DNA of 64,000 nt from an uncultured Nitrososphaerota archaeon (GCA_964408285.1 CAYOYV010000004.1:69950-133949), one strand, 5' to 3'. Numbered from the stretch's first letter, positions 7,212-63,735 are shown. Notes: generated by a model not told the origin, from the sequence alone. Numbers and translations: made by a program.

Positions 7212-10200
7212 ATGTGGCTGACCAAATCAATGCTTTTTCGCCAGTTCGCTCTTCTGTTGCTGCTAGCAGCATTTGTGTTGGGCCCCTCGCATGTCGTAGT
7301 GGCACAGCAAGACCAAGAGCTTTACAGATTCAATTATCGCGTGAACTTCAATAGCCAAGACGATCTGGTGCCGGAGAGGCTCAATCTTACTTGCCAATTC
7401 TACATCACGACCGCTCGTTCGATAGTACCGCTATCGGTTGTGATTCCTGTCTCAAAGTCCGGGCAATCGACAGGGAACGTGAATGTTACGCTCGATATGA
7501 ATCCAACAGATGTCATTCTGGCTTCGATCGGATCAGACGTGAGTCTGTTGCTCGGCAGACAAAATGCCTTCTATCCAGAAGCACGCGAGAGGAACTTCGT
7601 AATCCAGTGGGAGGTGGAAAGCATTGGAAACCGTTTCGTGTACACGCCTCTCGCGATCCCAAGCCCATACATGGCGTACATGTACTCGAATCTGGCAACC
7701 GATTTGCGAATAAGGCCAACTGGATACTTTGGACGTTCCATAGAAGTTGGAACTAGGTCGATCAATGTCTACATTTCGCTCTCTGCAAGGGCTGGAGACA
7801 AATATGCCTGCGATCCGCTAGGCCTAGAGGACCTAAAGTATTCAATCTCCTTCAATGAGCCCGGACCAATCATCCTCTCAAGGGATCTCTCTTTTGTAAT
7901 AGTCGACGCAAGAAATTCCACAGTCCATATACGGGCATCGTACATGCAATCTGTTCCAGCGCTGCCGAATCAGAAATGGATTGAACTCCCATTTGAATTC
8001 GACATCGAATTGGAGGAAGGACGGCCTTTGGCACTTGGGTCCAGATTGCTCAGCTCCCTCGAAGCTGCGTCCATGGATTGGCTCATGAGGGAATCAGAAT
8101 TCTTGAACAAGAGCAGAGCCGTTGTCCCCGATATAGCGGCCAAGATTAGCCAAGCTAAAGAGGATATTAGCTCTTTTGAGTTAGCCTTCATTGATGATCC
8201 GGCCTCAGCCAATTCCTTTGCCCTGCAGAGGGGTCTGAAGCTGCTAGCTGAGGCCGATGACCAGCTTGCGATTCTGTCTTCAACGCTGAGCCTTTTCGTT
8301 ACGCCGGCCATACTTAGTTTGTTGCTCATATTAGGAGCGATACTGTCGCATCTGTTTCTTAACGGCAATAAGGTTGCTACGCTTGCTATAGCTGGGTTTG
8401 CGTCGCTCTTGGCTGCGGAATTACACCCTGGATTAAGGGTATTCCTGATATCGCTTAGACCGGATTTCACCACTCTCGTTACAGCTGCAATGCCGGTTCT
8501 CTCGTTGCTCTTCACTGGTTTTCTCATATTTCGCGGCTCTGGGCCCCGGTCCCAAGTGGGCCTTGCGATATCTACCGCGATAAGAATGACAAAGACCAGG
8601 AAGCTCAGGGGATTGCTCACCGTATTAGCAGTTGCAGTAGTTGCGAGCGCAGCCGTACCGAGCATAACCGTGAAGACGGTGATGCCAGTGAGAATACAAG
8701 TACTCGAGACTCAATATGAGGGATCGCTCCTGCTGTCTGTCAGCAATTCCTGGAGAATGAGAATGGCTACTCAAGGTGGTGCGGCCTCAGAGGAATCCGG
8801 CTTCTCTTCGATGAGCTCTTCCGAACCCTCTTTCTACGCAATGACTCTGGGCTTCAGGGAATCCACGCCCATATCCCTCGCATTCTACAGGTCCTCTAAG
8901 GCATCAGGCTGCGTCATATTTGCCAATCTCACGTTTCTGGCCAAGTATCTTGGGCTGGCACCACGTGGAGTGAATATCACCAAAGTAAGTCAGGCCATCA
9001 TAGTGAATAGCAGACTGGACACAATCAGACAAGGAGAGACGCTCGTGGTCGCTGGCGTGCCACTTAAGGTCATTGGATTCTTCGATAGCTCAAGTCTCAC
9101 AGATCTGACGGGCAGGCCTCTCGAAGAGCTTATTGAAGGAAATGAGCTGCTCTTTCAGAATCCAACTTGGGATTCCTTGACTTCTCCCGCCTCTAGTCCG
9201 TTTGGGAGGAGTGTTCTTGATCAGCTCATAGCGGAGAGGGCTCCATTTCTACTGTCAACCAAATATGCGCTGCCACCACAGATTGTCGGCGTCGTCGATA
9301 TCAATATGATCTCAGGTATCAACAAACGGAACCTAGTCACTATTTCTGTTGTCGGGACTTTGGGTAGTGAGGTCGATGAGGCGAAATTGGAGGGGACCGT
9401 CAGGGGCCTGATATCCTCGACAAAAAACTCACTATCAATGGTAGACTCAGAGCAAGGAATCTCGGTTGAATTCATTAGCTCTATATCTACTACGATTTCG
9501 GCAAATGGTCAGTCAAAACAACTGGAGATCGATTTCCCTGTCGTGCTGCCGTTGGGAAGCTGGACATCACAACTAATCCTTATGTCAATAGGGGGGCTGA
9601 TAATATATACTGTAATATTGGGGTCGACCGTAGAAAGGGCAAAGGAGTCTGCCACGATTAGCAGCCTAGGGGCTTCTCCGAATTTCATCACGTTCTCCTT
9701 TCTGGCTGAAGGGCTCATGTTGGGAGCAATAGGGGCTGTCATAGGATTCTCGGCTGGATATATTCTCGCAATAGCAATAGGGACGAGTTCCCCAGATGTG
9801 GCCACGGAGTTCCACACTCTGACGCCAATGCTCCTTGTGCTATCCACTTCAATAGTCATTACCGGTTTGGCTTCCATTTCTCCAGCTAGAAATGCTATCA
9901 TGAAGGTCGTGCCCAGTAGGAAGATGCTGACTAGGGGCATAGGAGAGATAAGGATAGACAACACGGGGGCAAGGAGAATCTATGTTCCACTTAGACTCAG
10001 GGAAGGTCAGGTGACTCCGTTTCTAGATTTCATTTCCAGAAGGCTTGGCACCTCTTCCTACTACGAATATGGAATGCGAATCAACGGGTATCAGATAGAT
10101 GACTTGGGCCACAGATTCAAGGTATCTTACACAGGAGCTGGAGGAATCACTGACAGAGTGGCAAACTATGACATGAAAGTCGCATTGGTGCCTGTTGGGG

Positions 10201-10328
10201 ATTATCTTCATGTTGAGTTGGTGGCTCGCGCTGATGACGGAAAATGGACGAAGCTTCACGACTCTTTTCTCAAGGAAATGGTATATAGCATAAGAGACGA
10301 AATCCTGAAGTTCACAGTACCAACTTGA
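7212..10328 (+). CDS. Large ABC-exporter permease with two FtsX-like 4-TM domains and large extracytoplasmic domains
   Basis: N-terminal signal peptide (LLLLAAFVLGPSHVVVA). FtsX hallmarks (TKTRKLRGLLTVLAV; SSLGASPNFITFSFLAEGLMLGAIGAV) and a conserved ~170-aa cytoplasmic tail. Paralog of 20537..23761. Confidence 0.75.
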   Translation: MWLTKSMLFRQFALLLLLAAFVLGPSHVVVAQQDQELYRFNYRVNFNSQDDLVPERLNLTCQFYITTARSIVPLSVVIPVSKSGQSTGNVNVTLDMNPTDVILASIGSDVSLLLGRQNAFYPEARERNFVIQWEVESIGNRFVYTPLAIPSPYMAYMYSNLATDLRIRPTGYFGRSIEVGTRSINVYISLSARAGDKYACDPLGLEDLKYSISFNEPGPIILSRDLSFVIVDARNSTVHIRASYMQSVPALPNQKWIELPFEFDIELEEGRPLALGSRLLSSLEAASMDWLMRESEFLNKSRAVVPDIAAKISQAKEDISSFELAFIDDPASANSFALQRGLKLLAEADDQLAILSSTLSLFVTPAILSLLLILGAILSHLFLNGNKVATLAIAGFASLLAAELHPGLRVFLISLRPDFTTLVTAAMPVLSLLFTGFLIFRGSGPRSQVGLAISTAIRMTKTRKLRGLLTVLAVAVVASAAVPSITVKTVMPVRIQVLETQYEGSLLLSVSNSWRMRMATQGGAASEESGFSSMSSSEPSFYAMTLGFRESTPISLAFYRSSKASGCVIFANLTFLAKYLGLAPRGVNITKVSQAIIVNSRLDTIRQGETLVVAGVPLKVIGFFDSSSLTDLTGRPLEELIEGNELLFQNPTWDSLTSPASSPFGRSVLDQLIAERAPFLLSTKYALPPQIVGVVDINMISGINKRNLVTISVVGTLGSEVDEAKLEGTVRGLISSTKNSLSMVDSEQGISVEFISSISTTISANGQSKQLEIDFPVVLPLGSWTSQLILMSIGGLIIYTVILGSTVERAKESATISSLGASPNFITFSFLAEGLMLGAIGAVIGFSAGYILAIAIGTSSPDVATEFHTLTPMLLVLSTSIVITGLASISPARNAIMKVVPSRKMLTRGIGEIRIDNTGARRIYVPLRLREGQVTPFLDFISRRLGTSSYYEYGMRINGYQIDDLGHRFKVSYTGAGGITDRVANYDMKVALVPVGDYLHVELVARADDGKWTKLHDSFLKEMVYSIRDEILKFTVPT

Positions 10329-20536: not shown

Positions 20537-23500
20537 TCACTGCTCCTTTTGCCAATGTCTCGATAAGGTGATTCTGAGCAGTTCCTCCCGCAAGTCATAG
20601 ACCATCTGTCTGATCAGACTTTGTTGGTCTCTGATCCACTTGTCCTCTGGGCTTGTCACGACGAGTTCGATCTGATAGAACTCCTTGGCGGGAATATAGC
20701 GAATCTTTACTTTGTAGCGAACTATTCTCTCGGAATATCCAACGAATCCCCTGTAATCAAGAAGCAGGGATTCTCCATCAGCCTGTCTCTCGCGCGAACT
20801 GATGTTCACGCCGTAATGAGTGCCCGAGTAGTGACGATCCAAGCCTGAAACGAAAGCTGAAAACCGGACAAGCTGCTCCTTTCTGAGCCTTATCGGTATC
20901 AACACTCTCCTTGAACCATCTTTCTCCACGTTGATTTCTCCGATATCTTTGCTCAGCATGATCTTGCTGGGGACTACTTTTAGTATAGCCTCCTTGGCAG
21001 GGAATACGGACCCGAGGCTTGTTACAATCAGTGAAACAACGAGGACAAGGAAGAGAGAAGTCAAGCTGTGCAGCTCCGACGCTATCTCGGGAGAGCTTAC
21101 TCCTATCCAATACCCCCAAGCATACCCCATGATGTAACCGGTACAAGCTCCAATAATCCCCAGCATTAGCCCCTCGGCAACGAACGAATACGTGATGAAT
21201 GCTGGCGAGGCCCCCAAACTTGACATTATGACCGATTCTTGTCTTCGTTCGTAGGTGGAGTTCAGAACAACGCTCAGGGTAATCAGCGTTCCGATCGACA
21301 TCAATATGATTTGAGCATACCAAGTGCCGAATATCATTGATTTCGGGAAATCCATCTGCAACGTCGTTGACCTAGACCCGCTTTCTATCATCGCTGAATA
21401 GGACGACATGTAACTCAATGTCATGGGTATCGGACCCATCTGCTTCGTAGCGCTGAGCCAAACCTTGTGGGAGGAGATCAGCGACTTGAGATAGTCTTCT
21501 ACTACTGGCAACTGGTCCTGTTTACCATGCTCGCCGACTAGGAGAATGACCCTATTGCGAAGACAGGGGTACTTGGAGACATCTACCTCGCCTATCGCCA
21601 ATACCGGAGTCGGAATATGAAATCGTTGATTGCCGCTGAAGTCCTTCTGTGCAATAAGAGTTGATATTGGCTTAGGAGGTGAAGTCAGGGAATCCCAGTC
21701 GGGGTCACCAATGAAAAGCTCCATCTTTTCAAGGTATTCCTCAAATCCATTTCCGTTGGGCAATCTCAGAGTTGACGGTGCAAATGACCCAGCGGTCACT
21801 AGTCTTGCCCCTTCAATCATAAGCGAAGATGGCATTGGTTGGTCGGGGCGAATCAGTTCCTCGTTGATGAATACAATTCCAGCCTTGTTTTCCATTGAAG
21901 GAGATTTTTGAAGCTTAAGTCCGCAATAGCGACATAGCAAGGTCAGGTTGGCGAATATCACTGAGCCGCTGAGACCTGGCGAGATGTGAACTGAAAGATA
22001 AACTGGGGTATATTCTCTCAATCCCAATTTTCTTGCGTTGAACATTGCTTCGTCATAGCTCATCGGGATGAAGCCACTACTCTCCTCGAATATGTCCCCC
22101 GTTGGTGTTCTCACTACGAAGTTGGATGACCACACATTTGAGAAGCAGACAAGTGTTTGACTGGCTGGCTCTGAGATAGTGGTCTGAGAAACTATTGGGA
22201 AAACCATCTTGAGCGTCAAGCTCGGCACGATTGCCATAGCTATTACGATGACGGTAGCTATTGTCAATGCTCCGCGGAGCTTTCTACTTTTGATCAACCT
22301 CACGGCATTCGAGAATGAAAGGCTGTATATTGACGCGGTTCCGGAGTACCTGAGAATCGCGATTGCAGCAAGCAGAAGGAAAACGAGGCTCGTGCCGGAC
22401 GAGAGGGCAAATATTGATGTATAAGGGCGAAGACTTGGGTCCGATAATGCCTCTGTCGACATGATTGGCAAGGAGAAACGCAGAAGCCTCAATCCTGAGT
22501 GGATCTCAAACATCAAGGCTGCGATTACCACGAACAAGAATATCGTCATCTTCCTGCTGCCGTTGAACAGGAAGTGAGAGATTATCGCTCCCATGACAAA
22601 AACAATGACTGATATGACAGGAGCAACCAATATCCCAGAAGAGAAAATCAGTTCCCTTATTTCGTGATGACCCTGTGAAATGAGTTTCAACGCTCTCTCT
22701 AAGGGGAAGACATCAGATGATCTCTGGAGTCGCTCGCCATTGATCCCGAGATCCAAGAGATCTGCGTTTGCCTGCTCGAACCTGCTCGCTGTCTCAGGCA
22801 GGAATATGCGCGTCTTATTGAGGAGCGTCATGTCATCGTTCATCGTCGTAGCTGCCCAGATTGAAATCTGTTCACCCAATTCAGGGCCGATTCCTATCGT
22901 ATAGCCCCTTGACAGATTCAGTCGTAATGAGAATGGAATGGAGATGGTCCTGTTGAGCAACAAGTCAGGAATCCTCCTGAGATACGATCCTGACAGGAGA
23001 AGGTCCGTGATGTTACTGCGAACTATCAGGAGGCGCGGATTTGACCCAGAGCCAATGACTATATGAGCGTTCTCTGACTGATCGAGCCATATCCCTGAGC
23101 CAAACTTCTCAAGGGGTGATAGATCGAGTTCACATTTCCTTGCTTGACTTGCTCGAAGTGTGAGATTGATGCCGATGATCCTCTGCTCCGGGGAATCCTT
23201 CTGCAGGAAACAAATCAGGGATGAGGAGAACTCCAGCTGACTTTGCAGTGTTCTTGCGATTGCGGATTGGGAGGGTGAGAACGAAACCAGTTGCCTGGTA
23301 ATGTATCGGTAGAGATCACCATCGAGTTGAACGTCCCATCTCATGGGCGTACTCAACCGACTGCCGCCCATGGATCCGACAATTGAGGTCAGGGAACCCA
23401 AATGCAAGCATGAATCCGCGTACAATCCAACCAAGACAAAATACTCTCTATACGATTCAGTGTATGGGACAGCAAACATCTGGGTGATTGTTGAGTTGGA

Positions 23501-23761
23501 GGAATGATCGACGCTCCACGGAAAAGCGAGTCTCTTAGACACAGATCCTTTCGTTGGGTAGGTCGCCGCCATGTTAGTTTCAAAAGTGAAATTTATCGGG
23601 GAAACAGATGTCCACTGGTCAAGAACTGTTCTCACATTGAGGACTATGACATGCTCCAGGTCTGAAGCAGTCTGTCCATAGGTGCTAGACGTAACCGTGA
23701 CTAGCAGTAACATAATAATTATGAAGAAGCACAAGGTAAAGTGGCGCATGGCGTGCAACAT
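20537..23761 (-). CDS. Large ABC-exporter permease with two FtsX-like domains (paralog of 7212..10328)
   Basis: Signal peptide, then FtsX motifs IKSRKLRGALTIATVIV and SSLGASPAFITYSFVAEGLMLGIIGA. The C-terminal cytoplasmic domain aligns with the first copy. It is divergently paired with the ABC ATPase at 24004. Confidence 0.75.
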   Translation of the reverse strand: MLHAMRHFTLCFFIIIMLLLVTVTSSTYGQTASDLEHVIVLNVRTVLDQWTSVSPINFTFETNMAATYPTKGSVSKRLAFPWSVDHSSNSTITQMFAVPYTESYREYFVLVGLYADSCLHLGSLTSIVGSMGGSRLSTPMRWDVQLDGDLYRYITRQLVSFSPSQSAIARTLQSQLEFSSSLICFLQKDSPEQRIIGINLTLRASQARKCELDLSPLEKFGSGIWLDQSENAHIVIGSGSNPRLLIVRSNITDLLLSGSYLRRIPDLLLNRTISIPFSLRLNLSRGYTIGIGPELGEQISIWAATTMNDDMTLLNKTRIFLPETASRFEQANADLLDLGINGERLQRSSDVFPLERALKLISQGHHEIRELIFSSGILVAPVISVIVFVMGAIISHFLFNGSRKMTIFLFVVIAALMFEIHSGLRLLRFSLPIMSTEALSDPSLRPYTSIFALSSGTSLVFLLLAAIAILRYSGTASIYSLSFSNAVRLIKSRKLRGALTIATVIVIAMAIVPSLTLKMVFPIVSQTTISEPASQTLVCFSNVWSSNFVVRTPTGDIFEESSGFIPMSYDEAMFNARKLGLREYTPVYLSVHISPGLSGSVIFANLTLLCRYCGLKLQKSPSMENKAGIVFINEELIRPDQPMPSSLMIEGARLVTAGSFAPSTLRLPNGNGFEEYLEKMELFIGDPDWDSLTSPPKPISTLIAQKDFSGNQRFHIPTPVLAIGEVDVSKYPCLRNRVILLVGEHGKQDQLPVVEDYLKSLISSHKVWLSATKQMGPIPMTLSYMSSYSAMIESGSRSTTLQMDFPKSMIFGTWYAQIILMSIGTLITLSVVLNSTYERRQESVIMSSLGASPAFITYSFVAEGLMLGIIGACTGYIMGYAWGYWIGVSSPEIASELHSLTSLFLVLVVSLIVTSLGSVFPAKEAILKVVPSKIMLSKDIGEINVEKDGSRRVLIPIRLRKEQLVRFSAFVSGLDRHYSGTHYGVNISSRERQADGESLLLDYRGFVGYSERIVRYKVKIRYIPAKEFYQIELVVTSPEDKWIRDQQSLIRQMVYDLREELLRITLSRHWQKEQ

Positions 23762-41614: not shown

Positions 41615-42249
41615 CTAGGATTTGGTCTTCCTTTTTCTCTGCCGTTTCTGAACAGCGACGCTCCTGAATTCTTTCACTGCGTCGGATGCAATCCAGCGGG
41701 CGACATCGGAATTCATACGCTGGATTTCCTTCGCAGCATGGATGGCGGCCCGGTTCAGGTTTGGATTTCTTTTCCCTATGTTCCTAAGGGACCAATTGAC
41801 GGCTTTCCTTACGTAGTTCCTTTCATCCGTAGCGGCTCTCTTCATCGCTGGGAGCAATAGGATGATTTTTTCGTCTTCAGCATCCCTGTCGTGCCACGCA
41901 ATGCAGGCAATCATTGCGAAGGCGGTTCTCTTCACGAATTCCTCTTCGCGCGTGGACCATTCGAGGATTTTCTTCCAGGCAAGGGGAGTCTTCTCGAAAA
42001 GTTCATGCAAACTTGGTCGCAGACATCCCAAGAGTCTATGTCATTAACCCAACTCTCCATTTGGTCCTCTGTCAACCTATCTGGTTCCTCGATCATGGCG
42101 ACAACAATCCTTGCCTCCGGTATTCTTGTTTTCCACAAATCGAGCGGCAACCTGTGATCCTTCCCGCATTCCTTGGCTATCCTTCGCATGTCCGGAACCG
42201 GGACCGCGCGCGCCAATCTTCGTTCAATGCTCATGCCGTACCGCGCCAT
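41615..42249 (-). pseudogene. AlkD-like HEAT-repeat DNA alkylation repair glycosylase, apparently frameshifted
   Basis: Two overlapping minus-strand ORFs in different frames (41932..42249 N-terminal part, 41615..42031 C-terminal part) together resemble a ~210-aa AlkD-like protein. Confidence 0.4.
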
Positions 42250-44437: not shown

Positions 44438-44707
44438 TTTTGTTCCCCTTGGATCAAGTAGAGACGCCCATGCTGCTCTATTGATGAAAGTCGAAGGAGG
44501 ACTCTTATCGCTGATTTCACTCAGATCTGCCGGTGGCCTAGGATAATAGAAAATTGGAGCTTGATCCTAGGACTGCTCTTTGAGAGTTGGAATGGTACCA
44601 AGAGGGCTGTGTTTGCCCATCGGAATCAACAAACCCAATTGACTCTACTCCTCCGAGCACAGAACATCAGGGACAACTAGCTTGGCCCTAGGAAAGGCTC
44701 CTTGCTC

Positions 44708-44809
44708 CTACTTCCCGCAACAATCCTTGTACTTCTTCCCACTGCCGCAGCCGCACGGGTCGTTTGGTTTCGTTTTCTTCTTTCCTTTCGCGAATTTTTT
44801 CCCCGGCAT
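44708..44809 (-). CDS. 33-aa lysine-rich SEC-C-motif zinc-binding peptide
   Basis: The hand-translated minus strand gives MPGKKFAKGKKKTKPNDPCGCGSGKKYKDCCGK*. CxC-SGKKYKDCC is the SecA C-terminal SEC-C motif. Not in the ORF track (under 60 aa). Confidence 0.45.
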   Translation of the reverse strand: MPGKKFAKGKKKTKPNDPCGCGSGKKYKDCCGK

Positions 44810-44843
44810 TTTCTGATTCCAAAATGGATAAAGCTGGGCCTGA

Positions 44844-44851
44844 TTATTAAA
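44844..44851 (-). promoter_or_regulatory. Candidate TATA box upstream of the SEC-C peptide gene
   Basis: TTTAATAA on the transcribed strand, 35-42 nt upstream of the ATG. Confidence 0.25.
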
Positions 44852-45048
44852 TTTTCCCGTTCAGCATTAGGCTTTCTGCATCTGATGGCAATTGTGCTAG
44901 TATCTTTCTCGAAAGATTGCAGTCTCCGGGAGGACGTAGTTGAACCAACGGACCTCTGCGGGAAGCCCCCCGTTGATCGGCAGCCGTAAGTGACTTGATA
45001 GACAAGATTAATTACTTTTCAATTCTGCCATACTGAAGCGGGGATACA

Positions 45049-46037: not shown

Positions 46038-46826
46038 ATGATGGCGAAGATATCACTTGGTTCGATCTTAGGAGGAGGAGTTGCAGCCCTATTGATGGGA
46101 TTCTTGACAGATTCAATATTGCTCGATATAGCGCATAGAACTGGGGTGATTGAAGGGGCATCCTCCTTGGCATCCTTGCCAGCGGTAATGGCTATGCTGC
46201 TATCGGTGTCATATTTTCTGGGGGCCAGCCTCACAAAGGAGCTGCTCTTTGCCATGGTGGCAAGCCTGATTCTCTTCGCCAGCGGGATCATGGCCGTAAG
46301 GGCGCGCCTTCCCCCTGCTCCAGTTGGCATCGCTTCTGGACTGGTTTCTTTTGTCATACTCAGGAAATTGTTCACCAGAAACAAACCAGATCTGCACGAC
46401 ACCGAAAAAACAAGAAACGCGCTCAGCAATAGGACAATAGTCGCATATCAGAGGGTCAATGTTGACGACCTAGAGCGAATCAGTGATGCCCTCTACAGCA
46501 TCAGGAATACTGCCCTTTTCGTTAAGCCCTCTCTGCTGAAGACAAGGATCTTTGCAGTGCTTTCCATCGATGATGTTGACAGGGGAATTCTGGATCGCTC
46601 CCTCGAAACGCTGCCGGTGAACTACGCAATCCTTGAGACCGAGGATCGCGGCGAGCATAGTGCCTATGTAATACTCACATCTGAGGGCATGTTTACGAAG
46701 AGCAACCTCGAGAAAGAAGTAGCGAAAGTACTAAGCTCTGCAAATATCCTGACATTGCAGGGAGCGGAAATCGTCCCATCAGACGAAGCGAGTAATCCAA
46801 TCACTGCTTGGGAGATAGGGAAATGA
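46038..46826 (+). CDS. Membrane protein with a cytoplasmic C-terminal domain
   Basis: Four N-terminal hydrophobic segments and a ~140-aa soluble tail. Overlaps the next gene by 19 nt. Confidence 0.4.
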   Translation: MMAKISLGSILGGGVAALLMGFLTDSILLDIAHRTGVIEGASSLASLPAVMAMLLSVSYFLGASLTKELLFAMVASLILFASGIMAVRARLPPAPVGIASGLVSFVILRKLFTRNKPDLHDTEKTRNALSNRTIVAYQRVNVDDLERISDALYSIRNTALFVKPSLLKTRIFAVLSIDDVDRGILDRSLETLPVNYAILETEDRGEHSAYVILTSEGMFTKSNLEKEVAKVLSSANILTLQGAEIVPSDEASNPITAWEIGK

Positions 46827-47044
46827 GCCAGGTAGCCAACCGTGCCGAAGATGAGGAGAAGGAATTCGCTGAAAGCATCTTGAACTCTCTTCTGCATGCT
46901 CCCGTGGATCTTTTTGACGCCAAGAAGGATGAAAAACTGAAGGCAACTCTAGACAGGCTTGTCTCGGAGGGAAGGGTCGAACTGGTGTACAGACTGAGAG
47001 AGCAGAAGAGGCGCGGCAGGAGGATTTACTTGGTGAGGCTATGA
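46808..47044 (+). CDS. Small acidic protein with a basic wing-like C-terminus (first gene of the overlapping operon)
   Basis: 78 aa ending RVELVYRLREQKRRGRRIYLVRL. ATGA overlap with the next gene. Confidence 0.35.
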   Translation: MGDREMSQVANRAEDEEKEFAESILNSLLHAPVDLFDAKKDEKLKATLDRLVSEGRVELVYRLREQKRRGRRIYLVRL

Positions 47045-48297
47045 TGAGCAGGGCAGAGCGCCTCCTGATTGAAAACTCGATAGTGCCCTCTGAGGGTCAA
47101 ATATTCGCCGAGGGATCCGAAGTCGTGGAAACCATAAAGTCGAAACTTGAGAACTATGTGCATCTGAACCCGCGGCCTGTCGCGACAGAAAGGGAGGTTG
47201 TCTCTCTGTTGGGCCTGAACGCTTCCATTCGTCCTTTCAGGGTACCAGAAGTCGAAGATCCCTATAGCTACGTCGCGAACCTGGTTGAGGTCCTGAAGAG
47301 CACAATGCACGTGGACGATTTTTCTGCTTCGATATTGAAGAAGGTCCTCTACACATTGGTCGCCTCACATAAGGAACCTACAATCGAGCTGGTCAGGGAA
47401 ATGGTGGAGGAGGAGGCGACATACTTGACCGCGACTGAGTATATGAGCGTCAGGAGGCTAGAATCCGTCCTCGCGGACATGACAGTGGGAACCTTCGGAT
47501 CAGCCATGAAGGAGGAAAGGCTTGAACTCCAAGGTAGAGTCCTCGTAGCGATACCCGACGAGTTTCCCGTCATGTTCCGCTACGTTCCATTGGCAGTAGT
47601 ACTACTGAGACTCATTCACATGAAGGTGGACACTCCTATCATAATATCAGATGTCGAGGGCTATGTCCCCAGCAGAAGCAACGTTTTGCGCGAAGAGAGG
47701 GCCGTCATGTTCGAGCGGATATCTTACTTTGTGCGGTTATTCGACATCCTATCCAGAAGGAGAAGCATGGTCCTGCTTCAGAGCATGAGCTCAACTCTCG
47801 TCGCTTCCGAAGTCTTAATGAATTCCCGCAACATAATTCTCCGGAGGCCTAGAACTGATCAAGAGTTAAGGACTTTCGAGGGATTTGGAATACAATGGGA
47901 GAGACTGGCCCCCACCGACGCGATAATGCTGAGTCCTGCTTCCAATCTCTTCGCAAAGAGACTCAGAATTCAGCAGGTGAGGCTTGAGGAAATCAAGGTT
48001 ACACGAGAAATACCTGTACAATACTACTGCGTCCAACCAATTCTCAAGAGGCTTTTCGGAGGGGACTGGGAGAAAGCTGTGGATATATTGAAGTTCGTTC
48101 GGGATTCGCAGCCCGTTAACCTCGAAAGCCTGGAGACTTATGCTGAGACGAAGTTTGGAAAAATCAAGACTCTCAGGACCTTGATCTCTGTTGGCATGGT
48201 CCAATCATCCAAGACTCTAATGGGGCTCTCATACAGCATCACAAAAAGGGGAGAGAAGGCAATAGGAGAGATTGAAGAAGGAGGCCGGAAGTCGTGA
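47041..48297 (+). CDS. Hypothetical 418-aa protein with a winged-helix-like C-terminal region
   Basis: No NTPase motif. The C-terminal ~90 aa have an HTH/wH-like pattern. ATGA overlaps on both sides. Confidence 0.45.
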   Translation: MMSRAERLLIENSIVPSEGQIFAEGSEVVETIKSKLENYVHLNPRPVATEREVVSLLGLNASIRPFRVPEVEDPYSYVANLVEVLKSTMHVDDFSASILKKVLYTLVASHKEPTIELVREMVEEEATYLTATEYMSVRRLESVLADMTVGTFGSAMKEERLELQGRVLVAIPDEFPVMFRYVPLAVVLLRLIHMKVDTPIIISDVEGYVPSRSNVLREERAVMFERISYFVRLFDILSRRRSMVLLQSMSSTLVASEVLMNSRNIILRRPRTDQELRTFEGFGIQWERLAPTDAIMLSPASNLFAKRLRIQQVRLEEIKVTREIPVQYYCVQPILKRLFGGDWEKAVDILKFVRDSQPVNLESLETYAETKFGKIKTLRTLISVGMVQSSKTLMGLSYSITKRGEKAIGEIEEGGRKS

Positions 48298-48779
48298 TGG
48301 AAGGAACGGAAGCTACTCCGTTGCCAGAGGAGGACATTTTGTTCCAAAAGACAGGACTGAGATGGTATGTGGGGTTCCGTCAAATCCCGTCAAACATACC
48401 TATCGGAAGTGTAGAGGCTGAGATCAAAACGGTCTCGACTCGGAATGGAATCTATGTCCTCAGAAGGCTTCTGTTGCGCCCGAAGCTTAGACAGAACAAG
48501 ATAGTCGAGATTCAGGCCGAACTCTATCCACTGTGCAAGTTCAAGGAAATACTGAAAGCAGAAGTGAAACGACTCAGCTACATCAAGGATTGCCAGGATG
48601 AGATCGCGGAAGCCAAGAGTGAAATCAATTCCTGCAGCAATGGCTTGAGCAGAATCTCTTGGTTGTTGAGCCAGAAGGAAAGAGAAACAGTGGAGATAAG
48701 TGAGGAGATCCAGTTCTGCAAGAACCATTTGGGCATCCTCAGGAAGTTGATAGCGGAGGCAGAGAAAAACAATGGGTGA
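48294..48779 (+). CDS. Coiled-coil protein
   Basis: The C-terminal 80 aa are heptad-like and E/K-rich. Overlaps both neighbours. Confidence 0.4.
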   Translation: MMEGTEATPLPEEDILFQKTGLRWYVGFRQIPSNIPIGSVEAEIKTVSTRNGIYVLRRLLLRPKLRQNKIVEIQAELYPLCKFKEILKAEVKRLSYIKDCQDEIAEAKSEINSCSNGLSRISWLLSQKERETVEISEEIQFCKNHLGILRKLIAEAEKNNG

Positions 48780-49758
48780 AGAAACGGAGGAAACGGGACA
48801 AACTAAGGCTTGTCAGCTTTCCGATCTGAGCGGGCTTGGAGACAAGAGCATTGAGAGGCTCAATTCCATCGGAATCTACAGCGTCAGACAGCTCGCACTG
48901 TACAACAAGACTGAGATACTCGACTATCTTTCCGACTTTGATCCGCCCCGCCTCACCAGGGCCTTACATCAAGCCAGGGCCATCTGCTTTCCACCTAGGA
49001 CATATACTGGGGAAGAGAAGGAAAAAGGAGTCAGGGGACTTGATAGACTTCCGTCAGGTCTCAGGAACTTGGATGCACTGCTCGGAGGAGGTCTTGCGCA
49101 GACCTTCATATACGAACTAGTCGGCGAGTACGGAGTCGGAAAGACCCAAGTTTGTCATCAACTCGCAGTGCAAGCCCACATGAACAGATGGGGTACCTAT
49201 TACATAGACACTGAGAACACCTTCAGAATAGACAGGATCGCCCAGATGGCTCAAAGGTTCGGCCTGAAGGAATCCATAGAAGGAGGACAACTGAGACATA
49301 GCGTTCTTACTTCGACGCCACTGAATGTAGACCAGCTGATCGATGTCATCAGAATTGAACTTACGAATGCCGTGGAGCAAAAGAACGTGAAACTGTGTGT
49401 CCTAGATAGCTTGATTGCCCAATTCAGGAGCGAGTTCAAAGGCAGAGAGCATTTAGCAGAAAGGCAACAGACATTGAGCTATGTGCTGGGTTGGCTTCTG
49501 AGGGCCGCAATGCTCTATAAGATATTCGTAGTGATCACCAACCACATAATGGCACAACCAATGGGCTATGCTCCAGCAAAGGCTGCTGGAGGTCATGTCG
49601 TAGAGCACGGCACCACTTACAGGCTCTTCATAAGGAAGGAGAAAGAGAAGTTCGAGATGAGCGTTGAGGATGCCCCAGATCTCCCGTTTGGAGCGAGCAT
49701 TCAGTATACGATTGGTGAAGGCGGCCTGTTCGAAGCAGAAGAGAAACGGAAAAAATGA
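48772..49758 (+). CDS. RadA/Rad51-family recombinase-like ATPase with an N-terminal HhH domain (divergent)
   Basis: HhH (LSDLSGLGDKSIERLNSIGIYSVRQL). Walker A GEYGVGKTQ, IDTENTFR, Walker B KLCVLDSLIAQFRSEF, AERQQ, GGHVVEHGTTYRLFIRK, DAPDLP. Colinear with canonical archaeal RadA, at roughly 40-45% identity by eye. Confidence 0.75.
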   Translation: MGEETEETGQTKACQLSDLSGLGDKSIERLNSIGIYSVRQLALYNKTEILDYLSDFDPPRLTRALHQARAICFPPRTYTGEEKEKGVRGLDRLPSGLRNLDALLGGGLAQTFIYELVGEYGVGKTQVCHQLAVQAHMNRWGTYYIDTENTFRIDRIAQMAQRFGLKESIEGGQLRHSVLTSTPLNVDQLIDVIRIELTNAVEQKNVKLCVLDSLIAQFRSEFKGREHLAERQQTLSYVLGWLLRAAMLYKIFVVITNHIMAQPMGYAPAKAAGGHVVEHGTTYRLFIRKEKEKFEMSVEDAPDLPFGASIQYTIGEGGLFEAEEKRKK

Positions 49759-60078: not shown

Positions 60079-63000
60079 TTGTCTGCGGTTGAGCATCTTC
60101 AACATGGCCGTTACACTATCTTGAAGAAGATCGGGGAAGGCGGGAGGGGCCAGGTTTACAAGGCAAGAGATACGGTCTTGGATCGGGTTGTCGCAATAAA
60201 GGTGCTCAAAAGCACCCTGCAAAGCGAAGAAGCGTATTCACGATTCATCCGAGAGGCACAGGCTGTGGCGAGGCTGAACCATCCAAACATTGTTTCGATT
60301 TATGATGTCGGCAAGGAAGGAGAGACACAATTCCTAGTCCTAGAATATGTCGACGGTGGTTGCTTGAGCGATCTGATTGCGACTTATCCAGAACATAGGT
60401 GTGATGTTCCCACAGTATTGAGGGTCTGCATGGACATGTGCAGTGCCCTCCAATACGCTCATTCGCAAGGCATCCTACATCGAGACATCAAACCCCAGAA
60501 CATTATGATAACCCAAGAAGGCACCGCCAAATTGATGGATTTTGGCCTAGCGAAAATGCTCGGACAGCCTGAGTTGACACAGGAGGGAGTGATAGTCGGG
60601 ACCGTCGCATATCTGGCTCCTGAAATCGCACTGGGAAAAAGTGTGGACGCACGTTCAGATTTGTATTCGTTTGGTGCAGTTCTCTATGAGGCATTGACGG
60701 GCAAACCCCCCTTCGTCGGGGATGATCCTGTGAAGATCATATTCAGCCACATTCATGACTATCCTGTTCCACCGAGTAAGGCGAATCCATCAATTCCGCA
60801 GCCTCTGTCCGAGTGCACAATTAAACTGCTCGAAAAGGATCCGGAAAGGAGATATAGCTCTGCAGCGGATCTGCTCAAGTCCCTGAGAGAAATCACAGAT
60901 GGTCTCTCGAGGGAGGTGCTCACGCCGTATCGCGAACCCAGTAGGACAGTGCCAAGCGCACGTCCAATAGGGTCTAAGGAAATCCGGCTGGTCGATAGGG
61001 ACGAGGAGATGGCTATTCTTCGGGAGGTCGTTGATAGAACAGTAGGTGGTGAAGGCCGGCTTGTCTTTCTTCACGGAGAGGCCGGAATAGGCAAGACAAG
61101 ATTGACCAGGGAGTTGGGAACCTATGCACGTCTGCGTGGAATGCGCGTTCTGCATGGGAGATGCCCAGCGCTGTTTCACGTGGATGGCATCCCTCCCTAT
61201 TCTTTGTGGAGTGAAACCATCAAAGATTACTTGGAATTTTGCACGCCCGATCAACTATATAGGGTGATGGGCTTCTATCCGAGCGAGGTTTCAAAACTCG
61301 TTCCAGAAATAAAGCAAAGGTTAGGCGCAATTCCTCCTTCTCTGCCCATAGGTCCGGAGCATGAACGAGACAGGTTGTTTGAAGCAGTTTCTCAGTTCAT
61401 CGCCAATGTCTCCAAAGAAACTCCCCTAGTCGTCGTTCTTGACGACTTACAATGGACTGACCAAACGTCTCTATTATTGCTGGATTACCTGGGCCGGGGC
61501 GTTCACAGGACGCCATTGCTTATAGTTGGTGCATATCGCGAATCGGATATTGATGAGAAGCATCCTCTTTTTTCGGTAATGACGGATCTCAATAGAGAAC
61601 GTGTTCTCCAATCGATCTCTCTGAAGCGCATGTCCTACGAAGAGGTAAGTGAAATGATCAAACGGATTCTTGAACAAGAAGATATCCCAGGAGAATTCTC
61701 CCAGCTGATCTATGCGAGGACGAGAGGGAATCCCTTCTTCGTCGAGGAGGTGATAAGGTGTCTAAAAGAGGAGGGAACAATACGTCACGAAAACAACCGT
61801 TGGAAGATCGAGCAGATATCACGGATCGAGTTCCCTGATACGGTCAAGAGCGTATTGAAGGCGCGGATAGGCAGGATCGATGAGGAGTGTCAAAATGCTC
61901 TGACACTGGCTTCATTCATTGGAAACAATTTTACATTCGAAGCCTTGTTAGCAGTGACTGGTATTCAGGAAGATAAACTGCTGGGACTAATGGACAGAAT
62001 AATCAGAACCGGTATGGTGAAAGAGAACGTCATTAGAGGCGAAGATGTGTATTCGTTCGAAGATGCCGTCGTGAGAGACCTGCTGCACGAAGAAGTGAGT
62101 CACCTCAGGCACAAGAAACTTCACACAACAGTCGGAACTGCCTTGGAAAGGGCATATGCGTCAACGATCGATCAGCATTTTGGAGAATTAGGGTATCATT
62201 TTCTTGAAGGGGGAGATAAGGAAAGGGCTCTTGATTACTTTATGAAGGCGGCTGAGAAAGCAACAGGAGTTTACGCTCACCAAGAGGCAATCTCCTATCT
62301 TAAACAGGCTCTTGTAATCATAGAAGGCAAAGGAGGCAATACCGAAGAGAGAGCTCGTCTGACAGAGACGCTTGGCAACCTAGAGGCATGGATCGGCGAA
62401 ACTGATGCATGTATGGCATATTGGAGCAAGTCATTGGAACTGTGGAATCAAGCCGGGGATAGAAGGAGCGTTGCAAGGCTTCACGTAGCAATGGCAAAGA
62501 TGCTCTGGGAAATCGGAGACAAGGAAAAGGCCACCGAGCATCATAACGGCGCCCTGCAAATTCTGGAACAAGGGCCCGAAACCGTTGAATTGGCTGGCCT
62601 CTATGAGGACATTTCACACATGCTTTGGAGGACCGGCGAAAGTGCCAAAGCTCTTCCATTTGCAAACAAAGGCTTGGAATTGGCAGAGAAGTTGGCCAGC
62701 CCTCAGATCCTCGCGGATTCCTACAACAATCTTGGCGTGATGGCCTTGTATTCAGGACAAACGGAGAAGGCAAAGGAGCATTTCGAACAGGGATTGAAAA
62801 TAGCCACCGAAAACAACTGCACAAGAGCCGCCCTTCGTCTTTACCACAATCTTTCAGCAGTGTATGAAGCGATTGGGGGCTATCAAGTGGGATTTGAAGC
62901 TGCCGAGAAGGCATTCGAGCTCTCAAGGAAATTCGGTCTGATATACCAAATCCTTTGGACTGGCATAAACCTCGCGGGATATCACCTCATGAGGGGCGAG

Positions 63001-63735
63001 ATGCAAGTGGGCCTCAACTTAGCCGAGGAAATGCTGTCGCTTAGCAAGAGAACGAAAAATGCAATAAATGAAGCTTCAGCGATGGTTATGATAGCTTTAT
63101 TCTACGGGCTCTCTGGAGATTGGGAGAAAAGCACTGCATACTTCACAGAATCCTACGCTTTGGCGAAGAAGACTGGGGATTATCAGATTCATGGATTCTC
63201 TGCTTATTACTTTGGGTGGCTGTTTCTAGAAATGGGAAACCATATGGAGGCAGAGAAATATCTCAATGAGAGCAGGAGAATCTTTGAAACAGCCCATGAC
63301 GATGCTCAGCTATTCCCTTTCATATTACCAGTGCTTTCACAGCTGTATCTCGAGAAGGGCGAAGTTGACAAGGCAAGAGAACTAATCGAGAGGATATCCG
63401 GGTATGGATACAGCAACAAGAACCCCCTAATCACGGGGATTGGCGATTGCTTGAAAGCAATGCTATTTAGGGAACAATGCAATCTGAAACAGTCTCTGGG
63501 TTATTTCGAAAAAAGTCTTCAAGAGTACCGAACCCTTGACTTACAGGAAACCGACATCTGGACGTACTGCCAGCTCCTATACGACTACGGTCTTTTCTTC
63601 CTGAAAAGGAATGAAGAAGGAGACATGGACAGAGCCTTCTCATTTCTGGATCAAGCTCTAGAGATATATCACCGAGTCGGTGCGAAGAAAAGAATAGAGA
63701 GAATAGTGGCAAAAAAGAAGCTGATGACAGCATAG
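60079..63735 (+). CDS. Ser/Thr protein kinase fused to an AAA-type ATPase and a long TPR-repeat region (1218 aa)
   Basis: Hanks kinase GEGGRGQVYKA, VAIKVLK, HRDIKPQNIM, DFGLA, APE. P-loop FLHGEAGIGKTRL and Walker B VVVLDDLQWTD. About 500 aa of TPR-like repeats. TTG start. Confidence 0.8.
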   Translation: MSAVEHLQHGRYTILKKIGEGGRGQVYKARDTVLDRVVAIKVLKSTLQSEEAYSRFIREAQAVARLNHPNIVSIYDVGKEGETQFLVLEYVDGGCLSDLIATYPEHRCDVPTVLRVCMDMCSALQYAHSQGILHRDIKPQNIMITQEGTAKLMDFGLAKMLGQPELTQEGVIVGTVAYLAPEIALGKSVDARSDLYSFGAVLYEALTGKPPFVGDDPVKIIFSHIHDYPVPPSKANPSIPQPLSECTIKLLEKDPERRYSSAADLLKSLREITDGLSREVLTPYREPSRTVPSARPIGSKEIRLVDRDEEMAILREVVDRTVGGEGRLVFLHGEAGIGKTRLTRELGTYARLRGMRVLHGRCPALFHVDGIPPYSLWSETIKDYLEFCTPDQLYRVMGFYPSEVSKLVPEIKQRLGAIPPSLPIGPEHERDRLFEAVSQFIANVSKETPLVVVLDDLQWTDQTSLLLLDYLGRGVHRTPLLIVGAYRESDIDEKHPLFSVMTDLNRERVLQSISLKRMSYEEVSEMIKRILEQEDIPGEFSQLIYARTRGNPFFVEEVIRCLKEEGTIRHENNRWKIEQISRIEFPDTVKSVLKARIGRIDEECQNALTLASFIGNNFTFEALLAVTGIQEDKLLGLMDRIIRTGMVKENVIRGEDVYSFEDAVVRDLLHEEVSHLRHKKLHTTVGTALERAYASTIDQHFGELGYHFLEGGDKERALDYFMKAAEKATGVYAHQEAISYLKQALVIIEGKGGNTEERARLTETLGNLEAWIGETDACMAYWSKSLELWNQAGDRRSVARLHVAMAKMLWEIGDKEKATEHHNGALQILEQGPETVELAGLYEDISHMLWRTGESAKALPFANKGLELAEKLASPQILADSYNNLGVMALYSGQTEKAKEHFEQGLKIATENNCTRAALRLYHNLSAVYEAIGGYQVGFEAAEKAFELSRKFGLIYQILWTGINLAGYHLMRGEMQVGLNLAEEMLSLSKRTKNAINEASAMVMIALFYGLSGDWEKSTAYFTESYALAKKTGDYQIHGFSAYYFGWLFLEMGNHMEAEKYLNESRRIFETAHDDAQLFPFILPVLSQLYLEKGEVDKARELIERISGYGYSNKNPLITGIGDCLKAMLFREQCNLKQSLGYFEKSLQEYRTLDLQETDIWTYCQLLYDYGLFFLKRNEEGDMDRAFSFLDQALEIYHRVGAKKRIERIVAKKKLMTA

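Follow-up and report, generated by a model that had tools for sequence, protein, structure and literature searches.

A stand-alone 33-residue SEC-C protein gene in an uncultured Nitrososphaerota archaeon, its archaeal relatives and a tentative docking role

We analyzed a 64,000-nt stretch of DNA from an uncultured Nitrososphaerota archaeon (GCA_964408285.1 CAYOYV010000004.1:69950-133949; hereafter the window) and focused on a 33-codon open reading frame (ORF) on its minus strand at 44708..44809. Its product ends in a SEC-C knuckle, the metal-binding motif found at the C terminus of SecA, and we refer to the gene as the mini-gene. An earlier interpretation made from the DNA alone (the sequence-only reading) had proposed such a gene here, opposite a 95-aa ORF on the plus strand that it considered dubious. 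The features of the locus are listed below.

44708..44809, minus strand: complete coding sequence of the 33-aa mini-protein, with ATG at 44807..44809 and TAG at 44708..44710; product MPGKKFAKGKKKTKPNDPCGCGSGKKYKDCCGK
44711..44764, minus strand: SEC-C (SecA-like metal-binding) knuckle, residues 16-33, NDPCGCGSGKKYKDCCGK, from the match to PF02810
44765..44809, minus strand: Lys/Gly-rich leader, residues 1-15, MPGKKFAKGKKKTKP, predicted to be disordered from its sequence and the confidence of the AlphaFold model
44843..44855, minus strand: predicted archaeal TATA-type element AAAATTTAATAAT, an all-A/T 13-mer at -46 to -34 from the ATG, from the sequence and the positional analysis of A/T 8-mers
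44844..44851, minus strand: predicted TATA core TTTAATAA, at -42 to -35 from the ATG
44702..44989, plus strand: 95-aa antisense shadow ORF, not a gene, without family match and not conserved in relatives

The product MPGKKFAKGKKKTKPNDPCGCGSGKKYKDCCGK is the exact minus-strand translation of 44708..44809, comprising 33 codons from ATG to TAG. Seventeen codons upstream of the ATG an in-frame TGA (44861..44863) closes the frame, with no ATG, GTG or TTG in between, so that 33 aa is the maximum length of the product. Lysine makes up 11 of the 33 residues and the net charge is about +9, in agreement with the earlier description of an extremely lysine-rich, free-standing peptide. We also considered that a 52-aa ORF at 44847..45005 (minus strand) and the mini-ORF are parts of one larger, frameshifted gene. 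This was rejected, as the TATA box is located where the 52-aa ORF ends and family members are 31-33 aa long.

The Pfam profile PF02810 (SEC-C) matched the 33-mer with 30.7 bits (E = 2.8e-7; gathering score 20.4), aligning peptide residues 16-33 with profile positions 2-19, i.e., 18 of the 19 positions. SecA-like metal-binding domains (MBDs) are defined by CXCX8C[H/C] spacing, a serine two residues past the second cysteine and an aromatic residue four residues further on (10.1101/613315). In the 33-mer, the putative ligand cysteines C19, C21, C30 and C31 are spaced CXCX8CC (C19-G-C21-GSGKKYKD-C30-C31). Ser23 and Tyr27 align with Ser-889 and Tyr-893 of Escherichia coli SecA, and both are invariant in an alignment of seven family members. 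The basic residues K25, K26 and K28 (the KKYK face) are kept, and K14 precedes the knuckle. The peptide thus carries every sequence feature that defines this domain type: spacing, serine, aromatic residue and basic face. Translated in six frames, the window contains the strict SEC-C motif a single time (44717..44755), and none of 100 shuffles contains it; the match is thus not due to chance. The claim of a complete knuckle of the type found at the SecA C terminus was therefore borne out.

Alignment to the PDB recovered SecA zinc-binding domains (1SX0, 1TM6 and 1OZB, the SecA peptide of the SecB complex) and the C-terminal motif of YchJ (9L6B), the best match being 9L6B chain C (E = 4.8e-6). 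NCBIfam models for YchJ, YecA, a SWIM/SEC-C family and methionine aminopeptidase (MetAP; a weak match to NF008970) aligned only through their terminal ~25 positions and scored far below their cut-offs. For YchJ and YecA, these were 18-32 bits over the last ~25 positions against cut-offs of 120-158, which places the 33-mer outside both families. An AlphaFold2 model built from a two-row alignment, in which the metal is not included, had an overall predicted local distance difference test (pLDDT) score of 65, with about 53 for residues 1-10 and 70-74 for the knuckle.

On five metagenome contigs of the same population as the window, L001-L005, gene callers had already predicted the exact 33-mer and assigned it PF02810, and on two more, L009 and L010, they predicted an F6L variant. 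All of these contigs are more than 99.7% identical to the window; they therefore confirm the sequence and are uninformative on selection. Two further contigs from a metagenome scan (L012 and L013) encode the identical peptide, and the exact sequence is present in the NCBI, JGI, ENA and Logan collections, in none of which its cluster carries a name. Searching 1.84 billion representatives gave 199 matches at E <= 1e-3, of which only the F6L variant was full-length and the rest covered the knuckle only; a padded 40-aa query returned the F6L variant alone. The peptide-seeded metagenome scan returned mostly C-terminal tails of SecA-sized ORFs, and the knuckle was 81-88% identical to such tails on L014-L022. 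The scan also yielded free-standing relatives of 31 aa (L052 and L068) and 32 aa (L078, and L079/L060 with a TTG start). A 45-aa stand-alone form (L062/L066) looks bacterial, because L066 adjoins a bacterial HU gene.

A profile search with the family alignment identified relatives in archaeal metagenome-assembled genomes (MAGs) that NCBI labels "SEC-C (metal-binding) domain-containing protein". These belong to Ca. Bathyarchaeota (P0321, P0323, P0355 and P0371), Thermoproteota (P0354, P0359 and P0396) and Hydrothermarchaeota (P0088). Many relatives were also found in bacteria, namely in Chloroflexota (e.g., MBI2980543.1), Peribacteria, Lachnospiraceae and Desulfobacter, and the class as a whole spans 29-36 aa. 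The archaeal members follow a common pattern, M-[S/P]-x, a Lys/Gly-rich leader of 10-15 residues and KP[D/N]DPCxCGSGKKYKDCCGK(K), with the columns P-x-D-P-C-x-C-G-S-G-K-x-Y-K-D-C-C invariant. The spacing of the CxC and CC pairs, which the sequence-only reading had named as a check together with the existence of homologs, does not vary among them. The window peptide fits every column of the alignment, including the length of 31-33 aa, the leader, the core and a stop codon no more than three codons after CCG(K/Q). The archaeal 31-33-aa SEC-C proteins form one coherent family that includes Bathyarchaeota, Thermoproteota and related archaea.

The label "unannotated", which the gene had been given, held for the ORF track available to the sequence-only reading. 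It did not hold beyond that, since the 33-mer is a called gene with PF02810 on L001-L005 and the class is annotated in archaeal MAGs. The gene type itself is therefore not the discovery of an unannotated class. Four of the relatives (the mini-proteins of L052, L068, L078 and L079) had no exact sequence in a collection of 15 billion proteins in which several of their neighbor proteins were present, which suggests that gene callers often overlook genes of 31-32 codons. Judged by title and abstract, none of the 31 papers in the searched library that mention the SEC-C motif or domain or the SecA-like MBD deals with stand-alone or archaeal forms.

Many archaeal members carry an extra N-terminal cysteine or cysteine pair (MSCGCGG.., MSCSCGS.., MPCCG..), giving up to six cysteines in 32 residues. 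Such members are P0321, P0323, P0355, P0371, P0354 and P0359, and the mini-genes at L078 2977..3075 and L079 2075..2173. From its sequence, the additional pair could form a second metal site or mark a cluster-binding variant. The window peptide, which starts with MPGKKFAKG, has no N-terminal cysteine; the same is true for P0345 and P0339, and the extra cysteines thus mark a subgroup and not the family. A separate architecture was observed on L046, L048, L051, L082, L086 and L088, where proteins of ~156 aa contain a conserved domain of ~130 aa ending in ...YPATGGHS (also on L057 and L065, 156-173 aa). Their SEC-C-like match is 86-90% identical to query residues 12-32 and apparently lies near the N terminus.

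To describe selection on the minus-strand frame we compared the 18-codon core of seven family members, in which differences at codon positions 1, 2 and 3 numbered 32, 20 and 209. The ratio of synonymous to non-synonymous changes was 186 to 35 over all codons and 111 to 29 when the seven codons fixed by the search pattern were left out. Ascertainment through this pattern inflates amino acid identity; the placement of start and stop is not dictated by it, and in all 31-33-aa members the start lies 10-15 codons before the knuckle and the stop at most three codons after CCG(K/Q). An orthologous pair in conserved synteny was available in L079 and L098, the latter from the complete Bathyarchaeota chromosome CP070709.1. 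Their mini-genes share 86% nucleotide identity; of the codons that differ, 8 changed synonymously and 5 non-synonymously. Amino acids were replaced only within the leader, at the N/D position, at the variable x of CxC and at the next-to-last residue, and every Cys, Ser and Tyr as well as KKYK is kept. An upstream TATA box and GGAGG (Shine-Dalgarno sequence) and a downstream oligo-T tract are conserved between the two loci, where neighboring proteins are 89-95% identical.

The predicted promoter of the window mini-gene consists of the TATA-type 13-mer and a preceding purine-rich GGGAAAA, which could be a candidate B recognition element. All-A/T 8-mers are rare in the window, at 0.08% of its positions, and about 1% of random 21-nt spans include one. 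Upstream of 38 other window genes with an intergenic upstream region, A/T-rich 8-mers were enriched between -50 and -21 (0.32-0.34 per bin vs 0.05-0.16 farther upstream). At about 28-45 nt upstream of their start codons, genes of the window have A/T-rich TATA-type boxes in place of bacterial -35/-10 pairs. The core TTTAATAA has a position typical of these genes, and the TATA-like box proposed at ~35 nt upstream was confirmed. We relied on the positional analysis of A/T 8-mers after an unsupervised expectation-maximization motif search of the upstream regions gave a purine-rich motif and not a TATA box. From the usual archaeal distance between TATA box and start, we infer a 5' leader of probably ~10-12 nt. 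TATA-like boxes also lie 31-45 nt upstream of the mini-genes on L052, L068, L078, L079/L098, L099, L101 and L103, and in most archaeal relatives an oligo-T tract directly follows the stop codon. In contrast to most relatives, no T5 tract follows the stop codon of the window mini-gene within 60 nt; this suggests a weak terminator and is a small weakness of the case. Taken from the sequence, the mini-gene is probably a one-gene unit with its own predicted promoter, encoding a predicted disordered polylysine leader and a single SecA-type CXCX8CC knuckle.

The plus-strand ORF at 44702..44989 exists as described, and its greater length in comparison with the 33-codon minus-strand ORF is what would speak for it as the real gene, with the SEC-C match as an incidental feature of the opposite strand. 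It had no match in Pfam or NCBIfam, and gene callers never picked it on the contigs of the same population. The ORF is the codon-aligned antisense frame of the mini-gene, and its Leu/Phe-rich translation mirrors the Lys codons of the opposite strand. The frame stays open because the sense strand has no TTA, CTA or TCA codons; the 33-mer contains no leucine, and its sole serine codon is AGT. Among relatives, the antisense frame is interrupted in L052, L079 and L066 and its length varies between 34 and 108 aa, and the parts of it beyond the overlap with the mini-gene showed no similarity among relatives (best E = 0.3). Third-position bias at the locus follows the minus-strand frame. Conservation of the plus-strand ORF, which would have counted against the mini-gene, was thus not found, and the suspicion that this ORF is dubious was well placed: the comparison of relatives already refutes it as a gene, and we give it virtually no chance. 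As no Rfam family or tRNA was found within the window, there is no RNA-gene alternative either. We conclude that 44708..44809 (minus strand) is almost certainly a real gene and that its SEC-C domain assignment is correct.

The mini-gene of the window is flanked by a divergent gene for a sugar-phosphate-isomerase-like TIM barrel protein and a convergent ABC-2 exporter gene. In other lineages its surroundings differ. On L098 (1..5875; CP070709.1) and L079/L060, the order is Zip permease, radical SAM, thioredoxin, Mrp/ParA-like ATPase, NifU, flavin reductase, mini-gene, VIT1 and MoaE. It follows a MazG-like gene on L099/L100, lies after an AAA_14 ATPase gene and before an ABC operon on L101/L102, and is located between a methyltransferase gene and GatE/GatD on L103, while a Chloroflexota 33-mer (L011) adjoins an AhpC/Redoxin gene. 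ABC transporters of the window and L101 were considered as a recurring neighbor; this was rejected, as the ABC pairs are 35% and 27% identical and their arrangement differs. On L052 (1988..4122) the mini-gene lies between URO-D and DUF998 genes, and L094-L097 have the order DUF998 - URO-D - GFO without mini-gene, so that its presence coincides with a local rearrangement. A scan of viral contigs yielded no relative of the mini-gene and hence no sign of a virus-borne gene. The position of the mini-gene is not conserved across lineages; it is a patchy or relocating accessory gene and not a syntenic core gene.

The wider window identifies the host as an archaeon. Besides a RadA/Rad51-type ATPase, it encodes an archaeal-type asparagine synthetase A (423 bits vs an NCBIfam cut-off of 368), whose named homologs are all archaeal (Heimdallarchaeota, Thermoprotei, Caldarchaeum/Aigarchaeota, Thermoplasmata and Bathyarchaeia; best non-self identity ~59%). 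The closest relative of the TIM barrel neighbor in a genome collection, and the only archaeal one there, is in a Nitrososphaera sp. MAG (54% identity). The gene content of the window, with sulfatase, GH2 and GH4 genes, is heterotrophic.

Several other regions of the window were noted in passing. A four-gene cluster at 47041..50552 (plus strand), encoding proteins of 418, 161, 328 and 265 aa, recurs on L003-L005 and L009. Its 328-aa protein (48772..49758) is a RadA/Rad51-like ATPase scoring 212 bits, below the RadA equivalog cut-off of 259, and we therefore regard it as a probable RadA paralog. Two partners were scanned, the 418-aa protein and an adjacent 262-aa protein (46038..46826), and neither had a family match. 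At ~41615..42249 (minus strand), a DNA_alkylation-repair gene (PF08713) is apparently split into ORFs of 105 and 106 aa with a 4-nt overlap; the split was seen on L001, L002, L009 and L010, the window coordinates being mapped from L009 by alignment, and it may represent a frameshifted pseudogene, a programmed frameshift or a two-part gene. Paralogous proteins of 1038 and 1074 aa are encoded at 7212..10328 (plus strand) and 20537..23761 (minus strand), their sole recognizable domain being a single C-terminal FtsX-like permease module (residues ~790-925). A 1218-aa protein at 60079..63735 (plus strand) fuses a Ser/Thr protein kinase to an AAA_16 ATPase and TPR/MalT-like repeats.

Among known systems, the closest counterpart of the mini-protein is the C-terminal MBD of SecA (PF02810; 1SX0, 1SX1, 1TM6 and 1OZB), which shares with it CXCX8C[C/H], the Ser and Tyr, KKYK and a preceding (R/P)ND/EP. 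The two knuckles are about 75-80% identical, and both are preceded by a positively charged flexible segment. By analogy, the leader of the mini-protein would correspond to the positively charged linker found ahead of the knuckle in larger proteins. In SecA, the knuckle forms the last ~20 residues of a ~900-aa ATPase, whereas in the mini-protein it stands alone in 33 aa; the window knuckle has CGC and CC where SecA has CPC and E. coli SecA has CH. No SecA-like sequence (motor, preprotein cross-linking or scaffold domains) was found in the flanks of the mini-gene, which is thus not a SecA. Archaea have neither SecA nor SecB. The roles of the SecA knuckle in SecB docking and SecA autoinhibition can therefore not apply in this host.

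The stand-alone SEC-C proteins at NCBI match the window peptide in architecture, length and KP[DN]DPCxCGSGKKYKDCCGK core, and the archaeal ones examined have their own TATA-like box. Many of the archaeal ones differ from it by the extra N-terminal Cys pair. The window peptide belongs to this class of stand-alone SEC-C mini-proteins, which is already annotated in archaea and bacteria. SecA-like MBDs are also present in YchJ (UPF0225; 9L6B and 9VXG) and YecA (UPF0149) of E. coli and Salmonella. These are attached to a body of 130-220 aa (an NTF2-like or UPF0149 domain) that the mini-protein does not have. The MBDs of YchJ and YecA co-purify with iron (10.1101/613315). One-domain zinc-finger micro-proteins of Haloferax volcanii (e.g., HVO_0758 and HVO_2753; PMC6562870 and PMC10716476) resemble the mini-protein in being archaeal, shorter than 70 aa and equipped with a single Cys4 site. 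They are characterized by two C(P)XCG motifs and mostly have no assigned function. They form a zinc ribbon or treble clef, differ in Lys richness and have no SEC-C Pfam match, whereas the 33-mer has CxC and CC; the resemblance is one of functional analogy only.

For free-standing SEC-C proteins, ribosome or SecB-like binding and metal chaperoning had been suggested as functions, and we consider these reasonable proposals, except that SecB binding is unlikely for the mini-protein because the host is an archaeon. We tentatively propose that it acts as a metal-dependent docking peptide for the ribosome or another polyanion, a possibility that we favor but hold short of probable. By homology, the four cysteines together with Ser23 and Tyr27 would bind one Zn or Fe ion, which would fold the last ~18 residues into a compact knuckle with a basic KKYK face. 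With its net charge of about +9, the metal-loaded peptide could then dock electrostatically on a polyanionic surface, most likely that of the ribosome near the exit tunnel (uL23 region), and docking would depend on metal and thiol redox state. The ribosome is favored because the isolated SecA knuckle co-sediments with ribosomes and because archaea lack SecA and SecB.

This proposal draws on work with larger proteins. A fusion of the isolated SecA MBD to SUMO co-sediments with 70S ribosomes, and the basic residues of the MBD contact SecB or the ribosome and stay conserved even where a bacterium has no SecB (PMC6620043). Cross-linking has placed the knuckle-bearing tail of SecA near the uL23 region of the ribosome exit tunnel. 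SecA-like MBDs also occur on bacterial MetAP and eukaryotic L35a, both ribosome-associated, and they bind Zn and preferentially Fe, with the conserved Ser contributing to the Fe preference (10.1101/613315).

Several observations weigh against a docking role at the ribosome. The precedent for ribosome binding comes from E. coli SecA fusions and bacterial ribosomes only, and in vitro a peptide with a charge of +9 can be expected to adhere to many polyanions, which bears on specificity. Confidence in the structure model is moderate (pLDDT 65), and a Foldseek search of the model against the PDB gave no match, as expected at 33 residues. At six loci (L092-L097) with a URO-D gene at least 90% identical to the one beside the mini-gene on L052, no frame contained a SEC-C motif within 2.5 kb, and the syntenic site of L006 (Nitrososphaera sp. 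MAG) had no SEC-C ORF. Between L079 and L098, the mini-gene diverges faster than its neighbors (86% nucleotide identity vs 93.6% for the Mrp-like gene). Together, patchy distribution and fast evolution argue against an essential ribosomal component, and they make every proposal on function a tentative one. Finally, among the neighborhoods examined, no translation or ribosome genes recur beside the mini-gene.

The peptide could alternatively be concerned with metal or redox handling, as a small Fe/Zn buffer, a metallochaperone or a thiol redox sensor whose Lys tail provides solubility or targeting; we regard this as possible though doubtful. SecA-like MBDs co-purify with iron and have been proposed as sensors of metal identity or redox state (10.1101/613315), and YchJ, which bears SEC-C-type motifs, has been reported as a factor that senses reactive oxygen species (PMC13377102). 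The metal and Fe-S gene neighborhood of L098, which recurs in L079/L060, would fit such a role, and so would the AhpC/Redoxin neighbor of the Chloroflexota peptide and the six-Cys subgroup with its additional N-terminal CGCG/CxC. However, the metal-related neighborhood is confined to one lineage, the window gene has the TIM barrel and ABC-2 exporter genes as neighbors, and other members adjoin MazG-like, AAA_14, methyltransferase or GatDE genes. The window peptide has the four canonical cysteines only. One metal per 33 residues makes a poor buffer unless the protein is very abundant, and metal handling alone leaves the strongly conserved basic KKYK face unexplained.

The net charge of about +9 would also suit a nucleic-acid-binding regulator, in which knuckle and Lys tail bind DNA or RNA in the manner of a minimal zinc-finger micro-protein. 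Precedents are YchJ, which recognizes one particular promoter sequence and whose surface is positively charged (PMC13377102), and the H. volcanii one-domain zinc-finger proteins, which are numerous and phenotypically important (PMC6562870 and PMC10716476). Yet the DNA binding of YchJ is not attributed to its SEC-C motif alone, and the Haloferax proteins use two C(P)XCG motifs and thus a different knuckle. With ~18 folded residues, sequence-specific recognition is unlikely unless a partner or oligomerization contributes, and no conserved pairing of regulator and target gene was seen beside the mini-gene. A regulatory function of this kind therefore seems improbable to us. Still further from likely is a non-functional relic that persists by chance, e.g., a leftover from the 3' end of a secA gene gained by horizontal transfer, or from a gene for a larger SEC-C protein. 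The identity of 81-88% to the tails of SecA-sized ORFs and the patchy distribution would be expected of such a fragment, but independent archaeal lineages with a locus GC content of 41-55% share the 31-33-aa architecture, the TATA-like box and mostly the oligo-T tract. Substitutions are mostly synonymous and the ligands invariant, the flanks contain no SecA-like sequence and an in-frame stop lies just upstream, so that the relic reading is largely refuted.

By itself, the mini-gene is a routine small-gene call, with relatives of the same kind already annotated, at the edge of gene-caller limits where genes of 31-33 codons sit. Its interest lies in what it may tell about the knuckle, which in SecA is usually explained through SecB docking and SecA autoinhibition. 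The mini-gene represents a natural experiment in which the SecA knuckle occurs alone, in organisms without SecB and SecA, and since the peptide can be synthesized, what the knuckle does on its own can be tested directly and cheaply. If the free peptide binds ribosomes or carries iron, the view of Jamshad et al. and Cranford-Smith et al., in which metal-dependent ribosome binding is the primary, conserved activity of the knuckle, would be strengthened, and the very small set of characterized archaeal micro-proteins would gain a member. More speculatively, and with little likelihood at present, the SecA-type knuckle family of several archaeal lineages might be a factor that docks at the ribosomal exit site (uL23 region) under the control of metal or redox state, and the six-Cys subgroup near NifU, Mrp, VIT1 and Zip genes could tie such a factor to iron status. 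If so, archaeal ribosomes would carry an unrecognized accessory mini-protein that responds to Fe/Zn or oxidation, and the SEC-C knuckle would be an ancient, portable ribosome-docking module that SecA, MetAP and others have borrowed.

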